From the NCBI GenBank assembly GCA_016196885.1, contig JACPWU010000046.1, forward strand, positions 30,001 through 62,000: a DNA stretch of 32,000 nt. Direction: 5' to 3'. Origin of the DNA: Chlamydiota bacterium (GTDB lineage: Bacteria > Auribacterota > JACPWU01). The notes below the pieces were generated by a model, which worked only from the letters and a program-made list of their open reading frames with translations, searched no databases and had not been told where the DNA came from. Numbering within the stretch: the stretch's first letter is position 1; each line of letters opens with the position of its first letter. Shown piece by piece: positions 2,254 through 26,496 of this stretch. A program made the position numbers and the translations under genes.

Positions 2254-2267
2254 GAGATCTCATTATA

Positions 2268-3131
2268 TTATCTAACTCCCAAAACCTCTAGGCTAATATC
2301 TACCGCCCTGACAGAATGAGTTAAGGCACCGACCGAAATCCGGTCTACGCCTGTTTGCGCATAAGCCTCCACATTGTCTAAACGAATCCCGCCTGAAGCC
2401 TCTAACAAAATTTTTCCTTTCCACTCTTTCACAGCCAAATGAACCTGAGAGGGATCCATGTTGTCGAGCAATACAAAATCGGCCCCGGCCTGAACCACTC
2501 TCTGGACTTCCTTCACATGCAACACCTCAAATCCTATTTGGATTTTGGGATAGTCCTTACGAATTTTCTGAACCACCGATTTCCAATCTGTAAAGCCTGC
2601 ATCCTCCATCACATATTGATGGTTTTCCTTCACCAAAATCATTTCATTTAAAGAAAGACGATGGTTGTGTCCGCCTCCCATTCTCACCGCATATTTTTCA
2701 ATCACTCTCAAAGAGGGTGTTGTCTTACGTGTATCATAAATTTTGACATTGTATTTTTGGGCCTTCTGAACAAAAGCAGTCGTTAACGTTGCAATCCCGC
2801 ACAAACGCTGAAGAAAATTAACGGCTGTCCTTTCTGCTTTTAAGATGGATCTGGCGGACCCTTGAACCAATCCAAATTTTCCAGACTCTATTTTTTCCCC
2901 ATCCTGCACCATCCAGAAAGAACGAATCGAAGCGTCCATTCTTTTCAAGACTCGGTCCACGATCGGAAGCCCGGCCACCGTACATGGCATCTTGGCCACC
3001 CACTCGGCCTCTAGTACAGCATCTTTAGGAATAAAATAATCCGTCGTCAAATCCCCCGCACGCACATCTTCTTCTAAAGCATGAGCAATGATAGGATCAA
3101 TTTCATGCCAAGGTAGTTCTGAAGTTTTCAT
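2268..3131 (-). CDS. nadC: Nicotinate-nucleotide pyrophosphorylase (carboxylating) / quinolinate phosphoribosyltransferase
   Basis: GDLTTDYFIP, ILKAERTAVNFLQRLCGIATLT, DTRKTTPSLR, LVKENH and the C-terminal ISVGALTHS motif are characteristic of NadC. 287 aa. Confidence 0.9.
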   Translation of the reverse strand: MKTSELPWHEIDPIIAHALEEDVRAGDLTTDYFIPKDAVLEAEWVAKMPCTVAGLPIVDRVLKRMDASIRSFWMVQDGEKIESGKFGLVQGSARSILKAERTAVNFLQRLCGIATLTTAFVQKAQKYNVKIYDTRKTTPSLRVIEKYAVRMGGGHNHRLSLNEMILVKENHQYVMEDAGFTDWKSVVQKIRKDYPKIQIGFEVLHVKEVQRVVQAGADFVLLDNMDPSQVHLAVKEWKGKILLEASGGIRLDNVEAYAQTGVDRISVGALTHSVRAVDISLEVLGVR

Positions 3132-12202: not shown

Positions 12203-12221
12203 AATAAAAACCCCTTTAATT

Positions 12222-12329
12222 CCCAATAACCAATAACAAATGACAAATTAATTCCCAATGAACCAATGTCTAATTAAACATTGGCTATTAGTCATTCATT
12301 TGTCATTTGAAATTGGTCATTTGTCATTT
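12222..12329. repeat. Inverted heptanucleotide arrays flanking a central hairpin (lysC-thrC spacer)
   Basis: The left arm has cccaata/accaata/acaaatg/acaaatt units. The right arm has tgtcatt/ggtcatt/tgtcatt units, the complement type. The central stem ccaatgt (12263-12269) pairs with acattgg (12278-12284). Confidence 0.65.
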
Positions 12330-15875: not shown

Positions 15876-15938
15876 TGTAGTCGCCCGATTCATCGGGCAA
15901 TCCGTGTGCAAGGCTGCCCCATAAATGGGGCGACTACA
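15876..15938. repeat. REPIN-like doublet (GTAGTCGCCC-hairpin units in inverted orientation)
   Basis: gtagtcGCCCGAttcaTCGGGCa (+) faces the reverse complement of gtagtcGCCCCAtttaTGGGGCa. The outer 11-bp arms tgtagtcgccc and gggcgactaca can also pair. Confidence 0.7.
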
Positions 15939-16018: not shown

Positions 16019-17899
16019 CTAGGCGGAACACTCGCCCTTTTTAGCTTCAAGGCGGTAATCCTGATCCGAGCCCCAATCCTTGTATATTTCAGGGGCCTCG
16101 TCTGGAGGGGGAACAAGTGCGAAGGGATTTAATTCGTTTCGAACTTTTTCGAAACCTATTCTCTCAAAAAAACTCTGCAGACTTTCATCTGAATTTCTAT
16201 GTCCAAGATAGAACCTTAAAAGATGGGTCACCGCCTCAGGAACTTTTCTCGCCGGGACTGACAGAATATTTTTTGCAAATTGGGCCCTGCCTTTTTCTGT
16301 AAATCCCCCCGTCATGATCTGATAATGGGGAACCACCCGTCCATGGAGAGTCCGAGACGCTCCGTGAAATCCTAAATCTGCAATGGAGTGCTGACTGCAG
16401 CCATGGGGACATCCGGAAACCTTAAGTCGAAGTTTAAATATCTCAGAATCATGGCTCAAGCCATTGCTAAAAATTTTTCCGAGTTCTACCGCCAATCCCC
16501 TCGAGCGAGTAATGGCCGAAATGCAGCTATCAGCACCCGCACAACGGGTAATATCCATCACATGTTCTGCACAACAATCAGCAAGATCCGCTGATTTCAA
16601 CTCACGGTAAAGAAAGGGAAGATCATCCTGATGAACCCATCGCAAGAGAAGATTTTGTGTAATGGTTGTTCTCACCCGTCCTTCGCAAAACCGGCGGGAT
16701 ATCTCAGCGATTCTTCTCAATTGAGAGCCCGTAATATCTCCCAGAAAACAGCGTATAAAAACAGAACGAAATTCTGCCTGTTTTTGGGAAAGGGTGTTAT
16801 GGTGCTCCCATCTTTCGAATTCAGAATTTTTGAGAAAGGCGTCTTTTTTGAAAAACCCCGATTCAACCCAGATTTTGCAATAGACGCGTGAACCGAGACG
16901 CAAGAGCTTGAGCCAGATTGGCCTGAAGAAAACGGAGGCATGCAAAAATTTGCCTGTCGAGTATTTCTGAAGGTCAAGTGCCCCAAGATCTTGCGTCGAA
17001 TTCCGCGGCCTATTGCAAATTCTGGGTTCAACCCTCTTTGGCGCTTCTTCAATCTTTTCAAGGAGATCCGTCCCCCCTTTTTGGAAGAGAATTTCTTGCC
17101 GGACAGATTGAACCGCCTCCTTAAAACGTTCGATCCCCCAGTCCTTGATCAAAAACTTCAGCCTTGAGCGATCCTTGTTTTGGCGGCTTCCATGCTGGTT
17201 AAACACCGCAAGAATAGCCTGAAAGGTGATAAGCAAGAACTCCGCCGGTGTGAAATTTTCAAGGAGCTGGGCCTCCCGCGGTGCTCCCCCCAGCCCCCCT
17301 CCTACATATACTTCAAAACCACGGATCGCACCCCTCATAACCGCAAAAACGCCAATGTCATGAATCATGGCATGAATATGATCCGCAGGACATCCTTCAA
17401 AGGCAATTTTGATTTTTCTGGGAAGACCCTGCGTCAGGGGATTTCTTAAAAAATATTTGCTTACTGCTTGCGCATAAGGCGTAACATCAAAGAGCTCATC
17501 CCGAGCAATACCTGAAAATGGACAGGTCGTAACATTTCGGACGCCATTTCCGCCCGTTTCACGCGAGGTAAGATCCACATCCGCCAAAGAACGCAAAACC
17601 TTCATCAAATGATCTTCACTGATCCCATAAAGTTCCAGACCTTGGCGAGTGGTCAAATGAACCCCCTTAATGGCACTATACTCTTCAGACAAATCCGCGA
17701 CCCGCTCCATTTGAAGAGGTGAAAGCATCCCCTGAGGGATTTTGATCCTAATCATATATTTGTCAGAGGTCCCGCGGTAGGAATAAACACCCTGCCAAAC
17801 CCTGACCTTTCGAAATTCTTCAAAATCCAGGCGGCCCTCCATAAAATGGTTGAACGAAATCTCGAACCGATCCAGTTCCGCTTGTGAAGTATTCTTCAT
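16019..17899 (-). CDS. sir: Ferredoxin-type assimilatory sulfite/nitrite reductase (siroheme-[4Fe-4S]) with an in-frame MITE insertion
   Basis: Two NIR_SIR half-domains. The Cys cluster motifs are TRCAGADSC (C-x5-C) and SGCPHGC (C-x3-C) in the C-terminal half. About 58 extra residues (RICNRPRNSTQDLG...CKIWVESG) between the halves are encoded by the repeat element. Confidence 0.8.
   Translation of the reverse strand: MKNTSQAELDRFEISFNHFMEGRLDFEEFRKVRVWQGVYSYRGTSDKYMIRIKIPQGMLSPLQMERVADLSEEYSAIKGVHLTTRQGLELYGISEDHLMKVLRSLADVDLTSRETGGNGVRNVTTCPFSGIARDELFDVTPYAQAVSKYFLRNPLTQGLPRKIKIAFEGCPADHIHAMIHDIGVFAVMRGAIRGFEVYVGGGLGGAPREAQLLENFTPAEFLLITFQAILAVFNQHGSRQNKDRSRLKFLIKDWGIERFKEAVQSVRQEILFQKGGTDLLEKIEEAPKRVEPRICNRPRNSTQDLGALDLQKYSTGKFLHASVFFRPIWLKLLRLGSRVYCKIWVESGFFKKDAFLKNSEFERWEHHNTLSQKQAEFRSVFIRCFLGDITGSQLRRIAEISRRFCEGRVRTTITQNLLLRWVHQDDLPFLYRELKSADLADCCAEHVMDITRCAGADSCISAITRSRGLAVELGKIFSNGLSHDSEIFKLRLKVSGCPHGCSQHSIADLGFHGASRTLHGRVVPHYQIMTGGFTEKGRAQFAKNILSVPARKVPEAVTHLLRFYLGHRNSDESLQSFFERIGFEKVRNELNPFALVPPPDEAPEIYKDWGSDQDYRLEAKKGECSA
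16862..17031. mobile_element. Full-length ~170-bp MITE with ~23-bp terminal inverted repeats, inserted in-frame in the reductase gene
   Basis: The left TIR is ttcaacccagattttgcaatag and the right TIR is ctattgcaaattctgggttcaa. An internal second inverted repeat is gacgcaagagcttg / caagatcttgcgtc. A second copy is at 2114-2253. Confidence 0.8.
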
Positions 17900-18080: not shown

Positions 18081-18264
18081 TAGCCCGCATTTCTCATCAC
18101 ATTTCTGCTGCGAGCGCCGATTCCGCCTCGTCTCTCCGTGCAGACTCGGTCGGCCACGCTCAACATACTGTAAAGTATGCCTCGCATGGCCTCGGTCGTC
18201 TTCCTCGCATCCAAAGCGGACTCAGGCGTTCCTCGCGACGAAATCTGATGAGAAATGCGGGCTA
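18081..18264 (+). ncRNA. Candidate structured RNA with 6S-RNA-like architecture (strand uncertain); alternatively a hairpin-forming MITE
   Basis: A 19-bp perfect closing stem (18081-18099 with 18246-18264) is extended by four more helices to about 40 bp. There is a pyrimidine-rich internal bubble of about 25 and 24 nt. The apical stem is ggcca/tggcc plus catact-GUAA-agtatg. Total length is 184 nt. The GNRA loop exists only on the plus strand. Confidence 0.35.
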
Positions 18265-18352: not shown

Positions 18353-20515
18353 TTATTGAACTTGGATAGAAACTTTTGAACAAGCCCCGCTTTCATCATT
18401 GACACGGATATCGTGAAATCCCACTCTGGGTGTCCAGAATAGAGATTCTTCCGAATGGGCCTTTCCGATAAACGTTCCATCCACAAACCACCATCGCCAA
18501 GAGTGAGGTTCTCCCCCATTTGATTTGAGCGTTATTTTTTGATGCGCTAGAGATGCGTGATCATCTATGTAGAATTCCTGATTGTGCGCAATAGAAGCAA
18601 TGACCAGACTTCTCTCCCCTTTTTCTAATTCTAAAGATTTTGTTTTTTCATCCGGCACTGAGGGCCATTCTTGAATTTTAGGATGAAGGTTGTTTAGCAA
18701 TCGAAGCGCAAGAGGCGCAGCCAAAGTCTGACCAACCAATTCGTGAGATCCCTTTCCGGAGGTATTTCCCAGCCATACCACAAGGGTAAATTGAGGTGTG
18801 ACCACGGCACACCAAGCATCTTTATGATCACTGCTGGTTCCCGTTTTCCAGGCTGGATGAAAGAGAGCGGCTTCAGGACATATTCTTTCTGTTCTCTTTG
18901 AATCGCTTAAAACATTCAGAACTTGCCAGCAGGCTTTGGAAGAAAGAATAGATTTTTTTTCAAGGGCGAATAAGTCGCGCTTATAACCCCTCCTACTCCC
19001 CTCAAGATTTTCTAGTCCCTGTGGGATTAAAAAAAAGGGGAGAGTCTCCCCTCTTAGTGTAAGAGGGGTTGGGGGAGTTACATCATTTTTAGATTCCTTT
19101 GAAGTGTGTATAAACTTTACTGGAACATGAAAGCCCCCTCGCCCCAGAGTCGCATAAGCCTCTGCCATTTCAAGAATGGATGCCTCTGCCCCACCAATAG
19201 CCAAAGACAATCCATATTTTTCAGGAGCCTGAGACAATTTTTTAAAGCCTGCTCCCTCCAGGATACCCAGGACACGAGGGATTCCCACTTTAGACAACAA
19301 CATCATCGCAGGGATGTTCCGGCTCTCTCGCAAAGCCTCTCCTGCAGTGATAGGACCTCGAAACATTTCATCATAATTCTGAGGCGTATAACCTGTCCAA
19401 GCAATGGGCTGGTCTTTCAAAAGCGTGCTGGGCGTACACAAGCCCATTTCAAAACTCGCAGCATAGATAAAGGGTTTAAGCGTTGAACCTGTGGAGTAAG
19501 AGCGTCTAGACAAATCCAAAACATTTTTCTCTTTTGTGAGGCTGATCGAGGCAAGACATTCTGCCGTTTGAGTATTTAAAAGGACAATCGCCAACGTATT
19601 AATATCAGGCGAATGAACCTGGTTGAATACCTCTCTCGCTGTCAGAGTGAGTTGCTCTTGAAAATTTGAATCCAATGTTGTCGTGATTTTCCCTTGCCGA
19701 AACCATTCCTTTAAAGTCAGCAAAAAAGGAAGCGCTGAGTCATGAGCTGCATGGGGCAAGGAATGCCACACCGCTTGAACGGGTTCGGATAACGCCCTTT
19801 GATATTCTTTTTCTGAAATCATTTTTTGATTCCACATTTTGAGAAGCACATGATTGCGCCTCTTGAAGGCACGCTCTGGAAACAAATCCGGACGATAACG
19901 GTTCGGACTTTGGGGTAGACCCGCCAAAAGAGCTGCTTGGTTTAAGGAAAGATCGCGGCAGGAAAGATCAAAATACCTCCAACTCGCTGCGCCAACACCC
20001 ATAAGGTTTCCGCCCATGGGACAGCGATTTAAATACTCGAGAAGAATTTCTTTTTTACTCATCTTTTTTTCTAACTGATAAGCCCGAATGGCTTCGATCC
20101 ATTTAGACTTAAAGGTTCGAGATTTAGGATGACGAAGATGCTCGACTTGCATGGTGAGAGTACTGGCGCCTCGAACAATTTTTAAAGCTTTCACATCCTG
20201 CCAAAGGGCTGCTGCAACGCCCAGCCAGTCAACGCCTGAATGCCCATAAAAACGACGATCTTCAATCGCCACAATCGCTTGATAAAGATAGGGACTTATT
20301 TCTTTTTCTTTTAAGGGGAAATACCATTCGTCATTTTCTGAAACAAAGGCAGCCAGCGCTTTTCCATGAGCATCTTCAATCCACAAGCTAGGAGGAGGTG
20401 CAACATGAGGAGGAAGTGGCACATAAGCAACAGCCAGAAGAAAAGAAAAATAGCCTGATAATAAAAGGCTCGTTATGGATGTTAAAAAAATAATCAGTCG
20501 ATGATAATGTTTCAT
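18353..20515 (-). CDS. pbpC: Penicillin-binding protein 1C (glycosyltransferase/transpeptidase)
   Basis: GT51 motifs (EDRRFYGHSGVD, GASTLTMQ), transpeptidase STGSTLKP (SxxK) and WKTGTS (KTG), and a C-terminal PBP1C-type domain (WWFVDGTFIG...HDIRVNDESG). It lies directly downstream of the A2M gene. Confidence 0.9.
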   Translation of the reverse strand: MKHYHRLIIFLTSITSLLLSGYFSFLLAVAYVPLPPHVAPPPSLWIEDAHGKALAAFVSENDEWYFPLKEKEISPYLYQAIVAIEDRRFYGHSGVDWLGVAAALWQDVKALKIVRGASTLTMQVEHLRHPKSRTFKSKWIEAIRAYQLEKKMSKKEILLEYLNRCPMGGNLMGVGAASWRYFDLSCRDLSLNQAALLAGLPQSPNRYRPDLFPERAFKRRNHVLLKMWNQKMISEKEYQRALSEPVQAVWHSLPHAAHDSALPFLLTLKEWFRQGKITTTLDSNFQEQLTLTAREVFNQVHSPDINTLAIVLLNTQTAECLASISLTKEKNVLDLSRRSYSTGSTLKPFIYAASFEMGLCTPSTLLKDQPIAWTGYTPQNYDEMFRGPITAGEALRESRNIPAMMLLSKVGIPRVLGILEGAGFKKLSQAPEKYGLSLAIGGAEASILEMAEAYATLGRGGFHVPVKFIHTSKESKNDVTPPTPLTLRGETLPFFLIPQGLENLEGSRRGYKRDLFALEKKSILSSKACWQVLNVLSDSKRTERICPEAALFHPAWKTGTSSDHKDAWCAVVTPQFTLVVWLGNTSGKGSHELVGQTLAAPLALRLLNNLHPKIQEWPSVPDEKTKSLELEKGERSLVIASIAHNQEFYIDDHASLAHQKITLKSNGGEPHSWRWWFVDGTFIGKAHSEESLFWTPRVGFHDIRVNDESGACSKVSIQVQ
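18983..19080. repeat. G/C-arm palindromic element inserted in-frame in pbpC
   Basis: It has C-rich (aacccctcctactcccctc) and G-rich (gaggggttgggggagtt) ends and inner hairpins ccctctta-gtg-taagaggg and gggga-gagtc-tcccc. It encodes about 33 aa (TPPTPLTLRGETLPFFLIPQGLENLEGSRRGY) upstream of the KTG motif. Confidence 0.6.
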
Positions 20516-20534: not shown

Positions 20535-20616
20535 ATTCCCCTCCCTTGATGGGAGGGGTAGGGGAGGGTGAGTTCAAATTCCCCCTCCCTAACCCTCCCC
20601 ACAAGGGGGAGGGAAT
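20535..20616. repeat. ~82-bp triple-hairpin palindromic element (intergenic copy, A2M-pbpC spacer)
   Basis: Sequence attcccctccc-ttgat-gggagggg / taggggaggg...ccctcccta / ccctcccc-acaa-ggggaggg. A near-identical copy lies at 22341-22490. Confidence 0.75.
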
Positions 20617-20629
20617 TAATATAGATTTC

Positions 20630-23600
20630 TCAATTCTTCGAAGAAATCGTCAGCGTCTCTCCTGCCCCAAAAAGACTGTTGATCGAAATGTCATACATAC
20701 ACTGCGCTCGAACAGGGGGAATCGTGAAGGTTCCAGGGGTAATCGCCCTTACAAGATACGTGTAGGTTGCCCGGCCTTTGGACATTTTTCCATAAAGAAC
20801 CAGACGATCATCTCGAATATCTACTCGACTGTCGACAAAAGCAGAAACTGCGTCAGGATTTGACAGCTGAGCTGTTGTATTGAATCTGGGGTTTTCAATC
20901 TCGAACCCGGCTGGTAGAAGATCTTCAATCACAAGATTGTCATAAGTAATCGTCGTTTCCAAATCGAGCTCTACCTGAATCAAGTCTCCGCTCTTGATCT
21001 CGTTCATAGATAAAGGCTTTCCGTTTTGATCCAGGTATTTTCTGCGAATGGAAATCCCATGATCCTCATTTTTGGGAGCTTCTTTGGATACACCTGTTAC
21101 TGTCCATGAAATATATCCTTTTGCCTGTTCAGACCCTTGAATTTTCACAAGAAAATTTTTTCCGATCACGTCTTGATTTAAAGAAGTCCAGGAAAGAGCC
21201 TCTCCTCCTTTTGTCTCTAGGATTTTTTCAGAATCAGACCCTAGCTCGCAAGAGGCAAAAGGCTCACCCATATCCACTTTTTCTAAATATTGTCCCAGCG
21301 CCATCAGAGCAAAGGCATAGTCCTGGGTACTCCCCCATTTTTTATCATCCCCTGCTTGTGCAATTTCCTGAATCAGTTTTGGAATGGCCGCATTCTCTGG
21401 GTCTAATTCCATCAAGGCTTGAGCCAAAATAGACTGGTCACGAATTGGAGATCCAATGTTGCCTTCAAGCTCTCGACTCTGCCGAGGCCGAGCGAAATCC
21501 TGAGGAATGAGATCCATCGCAAGATCGCGGCGCCCCGCGTAAAACCAGGCCAAGGCCAGGTAAAAGCGCGTGGAAGGATAAATCTCATGTTCTGATACAA
21601 CAGGATTTTTGAGCAACTCTTCGAGACGAGTCATGATGGAACGTTCTGGTTTTCCAGCCTTGGCCAAGACAAAACAGGCATAAGCCTGAATTTCTAAAGT
21701 ATCGGGATTGTCACTTGTTTCCTTCATTAACTTTTGCAAATAAAGAAAAAGCCTGTCCCGAAAATCTAGTGGGATCTCATAACCTAAACTTTCAGCCTCC
21801 ACCAGAAAATGTGCTGCGTAAACACTGGCCCAAGGCCATATCTCACGGTACCCTGGCCACATTGCGATCCCGCCATCAAGCGTTTGCATGCCAATGAGTC
21901 GCGTAATCGTGGTATCTACTCTTTGAGTTACATATTTTTTCTCGAATAAATCCGGAAAAAATTTCTCCCCCACTTTTGTAAGCCCTATCAGAGGGAAAGC
22001 CGTACTGAGGGTCTGCTCTGCGCATCCATGCGGATATTCATTGAGATAATTCAGGGCGTTCACAATGTTAAACGTCGAAAAAGGGAAAACGCGTATATTA
22101 AGCTGCGCCGTTTGGGAAACCCATTTTTCAGGAATTTTGATTTCCATGGGATGACCCGGCGTCACAGTCGCATCACTTCCAACAGATGTGATGGGGTAAG
22201 GGGGACGCACAGGTAACTCTAATTCTTGCGTGTATTTTTCTCCATTTAACTCAGCTTCAATGTAAAGATGCGCCGTTCCCATTGCTTCACCTGCTTCTAA
22301 AGGAATGGACAAAGTGACTTGCCCTCCATTTTCCATCAATATTCCCCTCCCTAGATGGGAGGGGTTAGGGGAGGGTGGATTCAAATCTCCCCCCTCCCTA
22401 ACCCTCCCCATGGTTTCCGTCTCTCGACTCCAACCACTCTCTCGTCCACCCGCAAGCGGGTACCCGGACTCGGTCGCAAGGGGGAGGGAACTTTTCGAAT
22501 TCTTCTCTGAAGAGTTTGTGAAACGAAGCACTGCTTTTTCATCTTTCAACTCAATAGAAAGATTTGCACTTCCCTTTTGCCCCGTATGATTGAAAAGGGT
22601 GATGGGCATTTCAAAATGATCTTTCATGGCTACAAATCGGGGAAGAGTTGTCTGAAACATCAGAGGGGATCTCACAATCATAGGCTGGTCCATGGCTCCG
22701 AAAAGATTGCCTGCATGAGCAATCACCATCACCCGCAGGCTTCCTGAAAACTCTGGAAGGCTAAAATGGGCGACGACTTTTCCTTTTGAATTGGAATGAA
22801 GAATTTTAGAAACTAAAGCAACATTTTGGATTCGCTGGGGAGAAACCGGTGACAAATGTCTTGGATTATATCCGCTGCCGTCTCCACCGACCGCACTTTT
22901 TGGATTTAAAGCAGGAATTTCAGGAAAAAGCTCGCTGTAAAGGTCCGACCCTGAAACTCCCAGTCCTCTGGTTTGATGAAAAAACTCAAAAGGATCCGGC
23001 GTCGAAAAATCCGTTAATTGCAAAATTCCCTCATCCACCAAAGCCAATGTCACAGAGGCATTGCAAACGGGCTCACCTGTTGGATTTCTCACTTCGACCG
23101 CTATCCTCACCTTTGTTTTTGGGCGTGCTTCCTTCGGGCCATCTACCTTAAGCAAAAGTTTTTCATCCTCATTCTCCACACGCAATCGGGTCACGCCAAA
23201 GGCCCGATGCATTTTCCAAGGGGCATCAGACTTCACAGGCTGAATCACTGTGGCCGACACATAAGCATTCGGACGAAACTCTTCAGTCATATCGATAGGA
23301 ACCGTTACATACGACTCCGTCATCTCTTGCACTTGATGAAAAATCACATGATCCGTTTCGAGGGTCAAAAGCAATGTCCCCGGAAAAGGACTGCGAATTA
23401 CGACTTCTGTCTTCTCCCCAACACGCACAGGAGAAATTTTGATTTTAAGTTCATCCGGTCTTTCTCGGCTGATAGAGTCTTCCCATCCTTCTCCCTCACT
23501 GACGTAAAATGACTCTGATGTCAGGGTTCCCATTTTGGGATCTCTGATAGAGACAACATACGATCCCCCGCCCGAAGGTGTGACAGCAACCTTCCCCTTC

Positions 23601-26347
23601 CCTTCTTTTAAGAGAATGGAGACAGACTGAACCTCTTCTAAAACACGAACGGAATCATACGAATAACTTCTATCCCGATACGTCAAAACATTGTTCCAAG
23701 TTTCTCTAAAAACTTTCACCTCAATTGAATCCAAAACCTTTGATATTTCTCCCTGACCTGTGACCGCAGCCACGTCAAAATCAGAAGGAGATCCTGGTGC
23801 CATCCTCCTAGATACGGGAGAACGAAGCGCCAAATAATAGGAAGGACCATCAATGAACAATTGCTCTGTCGAGCTCACCGCCCGCCCCCCCATTTCTTGG
23901 ACACTGCCTGTAACCGTCAAAAGCCAAGGGCCCGCATAAGAAAATGTTTTGTCCTTCATTTTAGAAAGAGAAGCCAAATCAAGTTCCCATTTTCCCTTGC
24001 CCTGTTCATCCAGCTTAATGGGAGGCAATTCAATCGATTGACCTTCAGGAAGAGGCACCCCAAATGTCTTTAAAGTTTCTGCGCTGTCTCCAAAGGTCCA
24101 ACCTTTCCATTTTTTCGAACGAAAAGAAGTGGGATCCAAACGTCCCGTCAAAGTCGCATCGCCATTTTTGGCCGGCTGGCCAAAAAGATAATCCCCTTTG
24201 ATTTTAGCCTGAAGGGATTTATCTGAAAGTTTGTAACGCCCGCGTTCAGATGGCCTTAATTTAAGAGCCATTTTCATTCGATTGGGAACAAATTCCTCTA
24301 CCAAAAATGAAGCCAATCCAAATTCTTCTTTCTCTTCCTTTCCAGATTTAGGAAGTCCCACGCAAACAGACCACCTCCCCGTCGGAATATCCTTTGGCAA
24401 CTTCATAGAAAGATGAGACATGCCATTGGAATCCATTTTGACCATACGTCCCTTCCACTCTCGACCCTCAGGTCTGTAAAATTGCCATTTCACTGGAAAA
24501 CTTTCAGGAACGGTAAGCTCTGAGCCTCGAACAATCGCCCAAAGATGAATTTTTTCTCCAGGACGGTAAGCCCCTCTCTCTGAATAGACAAAAGCTTCAT
24601 ACCCCTTTCTTAAATAAGGCGTTCCGGAAACATCAAAATTAGAATAAGAAAGCTGGCTTGACCTTAAATCAAGCCAGGTGAGACCTGTTTTTGAGGAATC
24701 AGAGGATGACAACTCTGCAACCACAATAGCAGGCCTCTCATCCTCCTTTATTTCTATTTTTTCTATTCTTGCCACCCCCTTTGAATCCGTAAGCGCCTCT
24801 CCTAAAAGTTGATTTTTATCCGAAAAAAGTTTAATTCTAACTTTTTCCATCGGTTTTGCAGTCGCCAAAGAAATTGCCCACACAAAAATGCCGCCTGAGA
24901 ACTGCTTTGCAACAAGGCCCACATCAGACAAGGTTACAACCGTAGAAGCCGATAAATAATAGTAGGCATCGTAAGTTCTATTTTCCTGATCTGGTTTTAT
25001 TTTAATTTCATAAACCCCATCTCGAGCGATATCCTTGGTGAGCAATTCATCCAAAGACAGGCGTATGTCTTGAATTTTATTTTTCTCCACATTTAACTTC
25101 AAAGATTTTTCAGCAACAACCTGACTCAATTGACTCAAGCCATACCACCTGCTTTCATAGACCGTATTTCTCCACGCCACAATGTTGTTTTCATACATTC
25201 TGGTCACAATCACCTTCACATTTTCAATATTCACCGCATGGGCCAGCACCGCCCGGTTTCCTTGGGAACCTAAATAGCCTTGTTCCTGTTCAAACCACAG
25301 TTGAGGTTCTCGATCATCAATAAAAACGCTAAAAAGATCCGAACGTGGATAAATCTTTTGGGAATTTGAAACAGCAGGTTTGGATATTTTTAAAGCATAT
25401 CTTTGCCCTGGGATGAAATCTCCTTCTAAACTTGCCCCAAACCATTCCTTCATGCATGTGAAAGGCACCTGAGGCTCAACCGAAAGCACTTCTTTAAGAA
25501 GCTCCGTATCCATGTTGTTGTTCGAGTAAAGACGAATCTTGATTTTTCCCCGTGAAGAAGAATAGGGTTCAACTCTCGTGATCATGAGTTGATTGCTTAA
25601 GACAAGCGTTGCTTCATAAGGAGCAGCCAGGCCCAAAGGACCACTCACCCCGCAAAGCCCCGCATCCAAATGAACCATCACCTGAGGAAAGGTCTCATGG
25701 TCTAGCTGTAGAAGAGGCGTTGGCTCTGTTATGATTCTGATGACATTCCCCGTACTTTCCCCATACAAATGGAAAGAGATGGCTTGATGATCCAAAGATT
25801 CCATTTTTAAACATTTCAGGGCTTCGGTAGATAAAACATTGTTGTTAAACTCGATCTCCAGCATAAATTGATCTCTTTCGTCAAAAGCCGCTTGGCGTAT
25901 GGAGATCACTTCAAGAGGCGCCGTCTTCACAGTCACCGAAAAAGAACTGTTTGAACATCCCTCTTTTGAAAGAAGAGTTTTTTCTGGCAAAGTAAATGTA
26001 AAAGGAGTGGTCTTTGGAAGGTCTATTTCAGGTGTAAAAGCGAGCTTTCTGGGACCCAGCCAATCCCAATGCCCCTGGACGAGATAAGGAGACTGAGAGG
26101 GTGTTTGAATCGTAATGGGAAGATGAGCAATCTCTGGAAAGTTTCGGTATTTTTCATCAATATCCAGATTAAATTCCCAAACCAGTATCGGTCGAGCCCC
26201 CACAACTGCATCTACCCCCGGACTAAATTTTATGACCTGCAAAAGATTTTCATTTTTAAACTGATTGAAATGAATATAACCCAACCAAGCCCCGATATTT
26301 GCTACCGCAAAACAAGAAACGGTCATCCAAAATTTTTTGCTCAACAT
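20630..26347 (-). CDS. yfhM: Bacterial alpha-2-macroglobulin (YfhM/ECAM-type, thioester-containing)
   Basis: ~1,905 aa with an N-terminal hydrophobic anchor (KKFWMTVSCFAVANIGAWLGYI) and long MG-domain-like beta-rich sequence. The thioester motif YPHGCAEQ (CAEQ) is at 22013-22024. It shows the classical pairing with a downstream pbpC. The start is set to ATG 26347 (GGAGA, 5-nt spacer) rather than GTG 26359. Confidence 0.9.
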   Translation of the reverse strand: MLSKKFWMTVSCFAVANIGAWLGYIHFNQFKNENLLQVIKFSPGVDAVVGARPILVWEFNLDIDEKYRNFPEIAHLPITIQTPSQSPYLVQGHWDWLGPRKLAFTPEIDLPKTTPFTFTLPEKTLLSKEGCSNSSFSVTVKTAPLEVISIRQAAFDERDQFMLEIEFNNNVLSTEALKCLKMESLDHQAISFHLYGESTGNVIRIITEPTPLLQLDHETFPQVMVHLDAGLCGVSGPLGLAAPYEATLVLSNQLMITRVEPYSSSRGKIKIRLYSNNNMDTELLKEVLSVEPQVPFTCMKEWFGASLEGDFIPGQRYALKISKPAVSNSQKIYPRSDLFSVFIDDREPQLWFEQEQGYLGSQGNRAVLAHAVNIENVKVIVTRMYENNIVAWRNTVYESRWYGLSQLSQVVAEKSLKLNVEKNKIQDIRLSLDELLTKDIARDGVYEIKIKPDQENRTYDAYYYLSASTVVTLSDVGLVAKQFSGGIFVWAISLATAKPMEKVRIKLFSDKNQLLGEALTDSKGVARIEKIEIKEDERPAIVVAELSSSDSSKTGLTWLDLRSSQLSYSNFDVSGTPYLRKGYEAFVYSERGAYRPGEKIHLWAIVRGSELTVPESFPVKWQFYRPEGREWKGRMVKMDSNGMSHLSMKLPKDIPTGRWSVCVGLPKSGKEEKEEFGLASFLVEEFVPNRMKMALKLRPSERGRYKLSDKSLQAKIKGDYLFGQPAKNGDATLTGRLDPTSFRSKKWKGWTFGDSAETLKTFGVPLPEGQSIELPPIKLDEQGKGKWELDLASLSKMKDKTFSYAGPWLLTVTGSVQEMGGRAVSSTEQLFIDGPSYYLALRSPVSRRMAPGSPSDFDVAAVTGQGEISKVLDSIEVKVFRETWNNVLTYRDRSYSYDSVRVLEEVQSVSILLKEGKGKVAVTPSGGGSYVVSIRDPKMGTLTSESFYVSEGEGWEDSISRERPDELKIKISPVRVGEKTEVVIRSPFPGTLLLTLETDHVIFHQVQEMTESYVTVPIDMTEEFRPNAYVSATVIQPVKSDAPWKMHRAFGVTRLRVENEDEKLLLKVDGPKEARPKTKVRIAVEVRNPTGEPVCNASVTLALVDEGILQLTDFSTPDPFEFFHQTRGLGVSGSDLYSELFPEIPALNPKSAVGGDGSGYNPRHLSPVSPQRIQNVALVSKILHSNSKGKVVAHFSLPEFSGSLRVMVIAHAGNLFGAMDQPMIVRSPLMFQTTLPRFVAMKDHFEMPITLFNHTGQKGSANLSIELKDEKAVLRFTNSSEKNSKSSLPLATESGYPLAGGRESGWSRETETMGRVREGGDLNPPSPNPSHLGRGILMENGGQVTLSIPLEAGEAMGTAHLYIEAELNGEKYTQELELPVRPPYPITSVGSDATVTPGHPMEIKIPEKWVSQTAQLNIRVFPFSTFNIVNALNYLNEYPHGCAEQTLSTAFPLIGLTKVGEKFFPDLFEKKYVTQRVDTTITRLIGMQTLDGGIAMWPGYREIWPWASVYAAHFLVEAESLGYEIPLDFRDRLFLYLQKLMKETSDNPDTLEIQAYACFVLAKAGKPERSIMTRLEELLKNPVVSEHEIYPSTRFYLALAWFYAGRRDLAMDLIPQDFARPRQSRELEGNIGSPIRDQSILAQALMELDPENAAIPKLIQEIAQAGDDKKWGSTQDYAFALMALGQYLEKVDMGEPFASCELGSDSEKILETKGGEALSWTSLNQDVIGKNFLVKIQGSEQAKGYISWTVTGVSKEAPKNEDHGISIRRKYLDQNGKPLSMNEIKSGDLIQVELDLETTITYDNLVIEDLLPAGFEIENPRFNTTAQLSNPDAVSAFVDSRVDIRDDRLVLYGKMSKGRATYTYLVRAITPGTFTIPPVRAQCMYDISINSLFGAGETLTISSKN
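22341..22490. repeat. Composite palindromic element in-frame in the A2M gene: a copy of the 20535-20616 element carrying a nested 66-bp insertion
   Basis: 22341-22410 and 22477-22490 align with 20535-20616. The extra 66 bp (22411-22476, with hairpin acccgc-aa-gcgggt) split the acaa loop of the third hairpin. The total is 150 bp = 50 codons (SLPLATESGYPLAGGRESGWSRETETMGRVREGGDLNPPSPNPSHLGRGI). Confidence 0.75.
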
Positions 26348-26496
26348 AGATGTCTCCACTCGTCTGTAATAAAAATTTGTTTCGAAAATTTTTCATAAAA
26401 TTTATGGAAATAAATCTGAACGGTTTGAGAAAGAGGGTCAATGAAAAATGAAAAATAATTTCAGACATGAATTAACTTATTGCACAGGAGGAAGTA

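Follow-up and report, generated by a model that had tools for sequence, protein, structure and literature searches.

In-frame insertion of a G/C-rich triplex/G4-hairpin repeat in a bacterial alpha-2-macroglobulin gene

Short G/C-rich repeats whose single-stranded units fold as hairpins, intrastrand triplexes or G-quadruplexes (G4s) have been described in Escherichia coli under several names, and the family is also known from cyanobacteria. Kaplan et al. 2016 listed 16 HPG1 (GGGAGAGGGTTAGGGTGAGGG) and 7 HPG2 (CCG linker) motifs in E. coli K-12 (PMC5100583), with a C-rich tract directly upstream, often in opposite-strand pairs and all between open reading frames (ORFs), and followed their hairpin/G4 switching by circular dichroism (CD; PMC5100583). 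Holder et al. 2015 described the same 23 loci as TM_ECO, with triplex formation seen in both CD and nuclear magnetic resonance, and placed them in a triplex motif (TM) class found in >260 prokaryotes and, in E. coli, ‘always located intergenically’ (PMC4666352); ‘PIT elements’ (Hoyne/Maher) is another name for these G/C-rich intrastrand triplex motif repeats. The published layout is CCCTCTCCC-loop-GGGAGAGGG-TTA/CCG-GGGTGAGGG, 34–37 nt long, often in opposite-strand pairs <50 bp apart (PMC5100583; PMC4666352). TM loci rearrange more than control sites, with local insertions and deletions (indels) and ‘palindrome effect’ collapses in E. coli (PMC4666352), and regulatory roles have been proposed for the family, themselves untested (PMC5100583, PMC8044849). 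Here we describe two copies of such a repeat in a 32,000-nt stretch of DNA (contig JACPWU010000046.1, positions 30,001–62,000; hereafter the window) from a short-read metagenome-assembled genome (MAG): one lies between the genes for an alpha-2-macroglobulin (A2M) and a penicillin-binding protein (PBP), and the other, interrupted by a further 66 nt, lies in-frame within the A2M gene. The two copies are composed as follows:

20535–20616, plus strand: intergenic reference copy of the doublet, 82 nt (unit A 20535–20568, spacer 20569–20580, unit B 20581–20616)
22341–22490, minus strand: composite insertion, 150 nt, in-frame in the A2M gene, encoding residues 1290–1340, SSLPLATESGYPLAGGRESGWSRETETMGRVREGGDLNPPSPNPSHLGRGI
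22341–22375, plus strand: gene copy, unit A (C arm CCCCTCCC, loop TAGAT, G arm GGGAGGGG, linker TTA, mirror G arm GGGGAGGG)
22376–22388, plus strand: gene copy, spacer TGGATTCAAATCT between the inverted units, forming the loop of hairpin 2
22389–22410, plus strand: gene copy, left part of unit B (mirror C arm, linker TAA, C arm, first loop base A)
22411–22476, plus strand: 66-nt interruption in the loop of hairpin 3, encoding the 22 aa TESGYPLAGGRESGWSRETET
22477–22490, plus strand: gene copy, right part of unit B (loop bases CAA, G arm GGGGGAGGG, then AA)

An earlier note on this DNA had claimed that a copy of an ~82-bp triple-hairpin element lies inside the A2M coding sequence and is itself broken by further sequence placed precisely in its third hairpin's loop (a|caa), and alignment bears out both claims. 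With the 66 nt taken out, the gene copy matches the intergenic copy, 1.8 kb away, at 91.7% identity over 84 columns (BLAST E = 1.6e-27 with a database of about 1 Mb), and the two-piece alignment on which the claim rested thus holds. The break point of the 66 nt falls between A and CAA in the ACAA loop of hairpin 3, other placements costing an additional indel, and the two indels that separate the copies, of 1 and 2 nt, jointly preserve the reading frame at both ends. In unit A, which has three arms (CCCCTCCC, loop of 5 nt, GGGAGGGG, T(T)A, GGGGAGGG), reading arm 2 backwards gives arm 3, and in both copies unit B is unit A reverse-complemented; the element is an inverted doublet of 82–84 nt with a spacer of 12–13 nt, and three hairpins are seen in it because it is an inverted doublet of three-arm units. 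Three matches to the pattern CCCTCCC-N3-14-GGGAGGG are present in the window, and 100 shuffles gave none. As DNA, the 82-nt element is predicted to fold at −27 kcal/mol (z = −3.3) and the 150-nt composite at −35.4 to −40 kcal/mol (z = −3.4 to −4.5), and the predicted mRNA fold of the inserted segment reaches −77.6 kcal/mol. For a single unit (window 20535–20568), ViennaRNA with its G-quadruplex option puts the G4 at −19.4 and the hairpin at −19.1 kcal/mol, a predicted near-equality that fits the published ‘switch’ behaviour; in the complete doublet, the same prediction has the hairpins outcompeting the G4.

The outer element, which the earlier note had treated as unknown, is, judged by sequence and layout, a G/C-rich intrastrand-triplex/G4-hairpin repeat (TM_ECO, PIT, HPG1/HPG2), and the family is thus already published. 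Both window copies have the C arm, the complementary purine arm and the mirror G arm; their loops (TTGAT, TAGAT, ACAA), linkers (TA, TTA, TAA) and unit lengths (34–36 nt) agree with the family, and both are doublets of opposite-strand units. They share with the TM_ECO/HPG motifs the order of C arm, 3–5-nt loop, G arm, 3-nt linker (TTA in type A) and mirror G arm over ~34–37 nt, as well as the frequent inverted pairs, the wide occurrence in bacteria and the instability of the loci, but differ in the arms (CCCCTCCC/GGGAGGGG here, CCCTCTCCC/GGGAGAGGG there), in the spacer (12–13 nt here, 18 nt there) and in their setting, since the E. coli copies are reported as always intergenic whereas one copy here is translated in-frame and interrupted in a loop. 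The reported intergenic location therefore applies to 20535–20616 but not to 22341–22490; it is, however, a reported property of the E. coli copies and not part of the structural definition of the family. Rfam has no family model for the element and gave no match near the gathering score, only sub-threshold look-alikes of miRNA hairpins.

The hrpB–mrcB spacer of E. coli K-12 (164530–164650) illustrates the correspondence: it reads TTCTCCCTCTCCC-TGT-GGGAGAGGG-CCG-GGGTGAGGG-(18 nt)-CCCTCACCC-TAA-CCCTCTCCC-TCAA-GGGAGAGGGGAC and overlays window 20535–20616 arm by arm, with the same three-hairpin anatomy. In 5426 complete E. coli genomes this spacer was found in filled, empty and collapsed states, the filled form being present in 3530 of them (match covering >=80% of the query) and the collapsed form consisting of a single hairpin from which everything between the outer arms has been lost. 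By coincidence, a class A PBP gene is the neighbour here too, with the hrpB–mrcB doublet just upstream of it. The ‘box C’ repeat of E. coli may be of the same family, but a search for confirmation found nothing, and we do not rely on it.

Two further observations concern the doublets themselves. They are direct repeats 1806 nt apart that flank the thioester-domain and C-terminal part of the A2M, and recombination between them would remove that arm of the protein. The spacer region TAGGGGAGGGTGGATTCAAATC (window 22368–22389 and 20559–20580) is identical at 21 of 22 positions to the variable arm plus T arm of tRNA-Leu(CAA), and in metagenomes the subfamily-specific 21-mer TAGGGGAGGGTGRRTTCAAAT matched only the tRNA-Leu(CAA) variable and T arms, on two contigs (L125, 1328–1348; L126, 690–710) and with TTCAAAT resembling a T loop, plus one chance site; a tRNA origin of the spacer was set aside, the likeness probably being due to chance given the number of bases scanned.

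The gene that carries the insertion, its landmarks and its downstream neighbour are as follows:

20630–26359, minus strand: YfhM/ECAM-type bacterial A2M gene, a continuous ORF of 1909 codons from GTG
22013–22027, minus strand: thioester motif GCAEQ (Cys1446), in columns that are invariant in the homologue alignment
23015–23431, minus strand: bait-region domain (Pfam A2M_BRD, residues 977–1115), the canonical protease bait, apart from the insertion
18353–20515, minus strand: pbpC, a PBP1C-type transglycosylase/transpeptidase gene directly after the A2M gene

In the public record the gene is called from 26347, for a product of 1905 aa, and the protein has the full set of Pfam domains for a bacterial A2M (bMG3, MG2, bMG5, bMG6, A2M_BRD, A2M and bMG10). 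yfhM and pbpC form the usual operon pairing (PMC4498604), and the 114-nt spacer between the A2M stop (20630) and the pbpC start (20515) holds the intergenic 82-nt element. As the earlier note had it, the inserted 150 nt make up 50 codons in-frame (A2M codons 1290–1340), stop-free in the frame used and within the 1909-codon ORF, and its estimate of ~105 residues from the insertion to the thioester cysteine is close to the 106 found (Cys1446, downstream). The stretch bounded by the conserved anchors N1257 and G1361 is 104 residues long in the window protein and 48–78 (median 56) in 46 homologues, and equivalent sequence at the insertion site was found in none of these (0/46, after 0/19 in a first set). 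AlphaFold modelling of residues 1185–1909 (the C-terminal 725 aa) from a 47-sequence alignment gave a mean predicted local distance difference test score (pLDDT) of 86.8 and a predicted template modelling score (pTM) of 0.80. The only stretch with pLDDT <50 is model residues 110–152, that is, protein residues 1294–1336, which has no secondary structure and is bordered by beta strands on either side; the inserted peptide, Gly/Pro/Ser/Arg-rich and with pLDDT 31–42, is thus predicted to be disordered, in agreement with the note.

The A2M model matches the native A2Ms of Salmonella and E. coli (4u48, 5a42 and 4ziu; E = 1e-43 to 1e-46), and by sequence alignment the insertion falls between Salmonella A2M residues 1052 and 1071. 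In the model the insertion lies in a loop of the beta-sandwich between MG9 and the thioester domain; given the published domain order MG9, CUB, thioester domain (TED), CUB and C-terminal MG (PMC4498604), this would be the first half of CUB. The inserted 51-aa peptide had no HMMER match in 1.84 billion representative proteins, and no word-sharing protein was found among 5.8 billion. The A2M gene keeps coding a full-length protein, with an extra disordered loop of 50 residues.

Relatives of the element are widespread. A scan of one genome per species with a 19-mer from unit B (CCCCTCCCTAACCCTCCCC) returned >119 genomic stretches from many phyla, with matches in Alpha-, Beta- and Gammaproteobacteria, Desulfuromonadota, Planctomycetota, Chloroflexota, Bacteroidota, Cyanobacteria/Melainabacteria, the candidate phyla radiation (CPR), Armatimonadota, Omnitrophota, Nitrospinota and others. 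Among the 126 matches listed, the complementary G arm, which lies outside the query, follows <=18 nt downstream in 99, and an inverted partner unit lies <=150 nt away in 53 (28 of these pairs are head-to-head, the arrangement of the window copies, and 25 are tail-to-tail). Among these relatives the G arms are joined by differing linkers (TTA, TTG, CCG, ATG and others).

The same 126 relatives were checked for long ORFs reading through the unit, and seven were examined with Pfam. Six in-frame copies, from six distant genomes, have Pfam domains flanking or spanning the unit, in UvrB (Magasanikbacteria), ComEC (Gallionellaceae), an Eco57I-type methylase (Thiothrix), an FAD-oxidase/Fe-S protein (Pseudolabrys), Mfd (an alphaproteobacterium) and a NACHT NTPase (Obscuribacterales), and a membrane protein from an Anaerolineales MAG, without a Pfam hit, is a probable seventh case. 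In UvrB the unit makes an exact 14-aa insertion relative to the window’s own UvrB, just before the DExH motif. Four of the six frames of a unit are open (for example PLPNPP and PSLTLP), and only open ones are seen in the coding copies, which amount to ~5% of the matches listed. No report of an in-frame coding context for this family was found in the searchable literature, and relative to that literature this context appears to be new.

We interpret the 150 nt, with a probability of roughly three in four, as repeat DNA, selfish or neutral, that sits in a permissive surface loop of the A2M and is kept since the reading frame is preserved. A doublet with a length divisible by three would have landed, in an open frame, at a place in the A2M gene that codes for such a loop; the 66 nt would then have entered the loop of the third hairpin, or else the doublet would have arrived already carrying them. 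Selection would act as a filter through which copies in a permissive loop, in an open frame and of a multiple-of-three length persist, and the inserted peptide would be a passenger. We infer the way in which the repeat is copied, the order of the two events and the neutrality of the outcome. The lengths of 84 and 66 nt, both multiples of three, fit two successive frame-preserving events and do not prove them. Tolerance at the site is indicated by its variable length among homologues, 48–78 residues, and by the beta strands that flank the disordered stretch.

Several points weigh against this interpretation. No mobilising enzyme, target-site duplication or empty A2M allele was found, the search for a transposase having covered ~52 kb of the source contig (the window plus 20 kb of flanking sequence) and the nearest A2M homologue in the databases being 55% identical. 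We know of no transposase for the triplex/G4-hairpin family. Only two copies of the doublet are seen in the ~52 kb, a search of another 10 kb of contig having added none, and for the 66-nt piece a single occurrence is known so far. According to Holder et al., TM motifs are not linked to mobile elements and are strictly intergenic in E. coli (PMC4666352), and sequence analysis leaves room for a function of the peptide or of the mRNA structure.

Comparison with other repeat families bears on the same question. The element appears to resemble the Rickettsia palindromic elements (RPEs) in behaviour only. [quoted passage not shown] Classical MITEs are recognised by terminal inverted repeats together with a target-site duplication; the element here ends in inverted repeats (ATTCCCCTCCC ... 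GGGAGGGAAT), and neither of its copies is bordered by a duplication. The RAYT-mobilised REP/BIME/REPIN repeats are likewise 20–40-nt palindromes, arranged as inverted doublets that give larger hairpins and mostly extragenic (PMC3116915, PMC3733652), but the conserved GTAG/CGTC tag is lacking here, the units ending in ATTCCCC... and ...GGGAAT, the mirror-repeat third arm is no REP feature, and no RAYT gene is present among the genes called on the ~52 kb. Archaeal potential quadruplex sequences with an adjacent C-tract (Methanomicrobiaceae) follow the same logic of G arm, G arm and C arm, and a hairpin/triplex/G4 equilibrium was shown experimentally for them; there, however, the C-tract lies 3′ of the G-runs, and the sequences are archaeal and reported in intergenic DNA only (PMC8044849).

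A broader reading is that the triplex/G4 family is a cross-phylum copy-and-insert element that recurrently seeds in-frame, disordered Pro/Gly/Ser-rich loops in core proteins such as A2M, UvrB, Mfd, ComEC, methylases and NTPases and whose hairpin loops serve as landing pads, an RPE-like route of loop evolution reaching from CPR to Proteobacteria and Chlamydiota; we offer it as a tentative proposal and think it, on balance, rather unlikely. The finding joins two separate literatures, on non-B-DNA repeats (triplex/G4 switches) and on in-frame selfish DNA in genes. If the family does insert into coding sequence in many phyla, such repeats would be a source of new disordered protein loops, they would also trouble MAG annotation and assembly, and the view of these motifs as purely intergenic regulators would need revision. 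For this A2M the consequence is small, probably a harmless extra loop, and the family-wide pattern is of somewhat more interest than the locus.

The earlier note had called the composite a case of nested elements. What stands of this is the presence of 66 nt within the loop, with two small hairpins (TGGTT..AACCA and ACCCGC..GCGGGT); as a second element in its own right the piece is hypothetical, its status being unproven, with no second copy and with a fold no better, when taken alone, than that of shuffles (z = −0.8). At 64%, its G+C content exceeds that of the window (about 44%), and all six of its frames are free of stops, as is the case for 1.9% of composition-matched shuffles. The search for a second copy was negative in the window with 20 kb of additional contig sequence and in 119 loci of other genomes (BLAST matches of 10–12 nt only), in JGI metagenomes (0 matches to one 21-mer) and in plasmids (no BLAST match), and among viral contigs one 22-mer gave three chance matches with differing flanks; terminal inverted repeats and a target duplication are lacking. 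Four other members of the family carry unrelated hairpin-rich sequences of 19–68 nt in the equivalent loop, and on this comparison loop interruption is a recurrent feature of the family, seemingly with different cargo each time. Elhai et al. 2008 reportedly described cyanobacterial very small repeats, different in sequence, that are inserted in copies of other repeats and occasionally in genes.

Two explanations of the inner piece, a loop-targeting element and filler DNA, are about equally likely, and each has somewhat less than an even chance of being right. The first is that the 66 nt are a second, independent mini-element targeting single-stranded hairpin loops, for example an IS200/IS605-derived one that has a hairpin near each end but lacks terminal inverted repeats. 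Its position exactly within a hairpin loop, the small hairpin near each end, the high G+C content, the length divisible by three with six stop-free frames and the unrelated hairpin-rich inserts in the same loop of four relatives all suggest this, and there is a parallel in REP loops, which are known landing sites of IS1397-type insertion sequences, IS1397 and ISKpn1 inserting specifically into the loops of REP palindromes. No search, however, returned a second copy, the fold is no better than that of shuffles, and neither terminal repeats nor a target duplication accompanies the piece. The second explanation is filler or templated DNA, laid down when a replication fork stalls on the hairpin/triplex and repair or template switching follows; the piece would then be a by-product of the known instability of the family rather than of transposition. 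This would be in keeping with the many local insertions, deletions and collapses at E. coli TM loci (PMC4666352), including the hrpB–mrcB states given above, with the different inner sequence of each long-loop variant elsewhere and with the single occurrence of the 66 nt; but no donor sequence was found within 52 kb of contig, and the piece, with its high G+C content and two hairpins, resembles a repeat more than it does random filler.

Selfish or neutral DNA has two functional rivals, both of which we consider improbable. One, raised in the earlier note, is that the loop has been co-opted and now serves the A2M as a further segment open to proteases (bait-like) or with some other function. 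Disorder and exposure are indeed predicted for the loop, which is part of the arm bearing the thioester domain, and the gene is otherwise intact with its invariant motifs kept. Bait regions, however, are disordered, protease-sensitive segments of the bait-region domain (within MG8 in bacterial A2Ms), cleavage of which sets the thioester domain free, and the canonical domain is elsewhere: the insertion (1290–1340) lies outside A2M_BRD (977–1115), ~175 residues past it, after the A2M/MG9 domain (residues 1185–1264) and in the next-but-one domain, at a loop of variable length, and does not qualify as bait region. Activation of ECAM has been ascribed to the bait region coming untethered once it is cleaved and then binding to the C-terminal MG domain (PMC4498604); cleavage at the insertion would not bring this about, and the bait-like idea is therefore without support. 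Moreover, no homologue has equivalent sequence, the peptide matches none of the 1.84 billion proteins, and the same repeat family occurs in unrelated proteins without a common function.

The other, improbable to much the same degree, is a role at the level of RNA or DNA, in which an mRNA structure of about −78 kcal/mol, or G4/triplex DNA, within the operon would modulate translation, mRNA decay or transcription between the body of the A2M and its C-terminal arm, the intergenic copy acting likewise between A2M and pbpC. It would draw on the strong predicted folds of both copies, on the single unit with hairpin and G4 nearly equal in predicted energy and on the regulatory functions proposed for the family (PMC5100583, PMC8044849). 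Against it, neither copy scores as a terminator-like or promoter-like signature, the hairpins beat the G4 in the doublet, the site is not conserved in homologues and the published regulatory functions have themselves not been tested.

That a metagenome assembler threaded the repeat into the A2M gene is very improbable, even though the source is a short-read MAG and two deposited contig versions differ by 94 nt beside another repeat, since the insertion is exactly in-frame, without stops and in a surface loop, and has support from independent data. The identical 1905-aa A2M product is encoded on two NCBI contigs, of 67,210 and 67,284 nt, and the window agrees with the public record of a groundwater MAG (GCA_016178005.1) at 100% identity over 22,163 nt, the A2M gene included. 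A Logan unitig from reads SRR12113387 is an exact match to window 20588–22370. It begins inside the intergenic copy, covers the gene’s 3′ part and crosses one junction, reaching 30 nt into the gene copy with its private variants; it breaks at both repeat copies, as expected of repeated DNA. The insertion is thus confirmed as real.

A second, unrelated repeat of ~170 nt lies in the window at 16862–17031, in-frame in a nirA/sir-like gene (16019–17899, minus strand), with 22-nt terminal inverted repeats (TTCAACCCAGATTTTGCAATAG ... CTATTGCAAATTCTGGGTTCAA). When the product was compared with nitrite reductase 3b0l, query residues 283–358 (76 residues) were skipped while the solved chain remained contiguous. 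The reading of the A2M insertion as selfish DNA is strengthened because in-frame repeats are thus tolerated in at least two genes within 32 kb. A partial copy of the ~170-nt repeat, 96% identical and without the right repeat, lies at 2113–2253, just downstream of nadC. It is here that the two deposited contigs differ: window 2255–2348 (94 nt) is absent from JACOUD010000031.1 (67,210 nt), with the junction exactly at the end of the partial copy, and nadC there codes for 314 aa, running into the repeat, rather than for 287 aa as in the window and the 67,284-nt contig; the difference is either a population variant or an assembly difference. Other intergenic inverted repeats lie at 18081–18264, in the gap between the nirA-like gene and pbpC (25-nt arms, 96% complementary, 134 nt apart), and at 15876–15938 and 12218–12328, of which one has 24-nt arms at 88% and one 42-nt arms at 76%; these may belong to other small repeat families.

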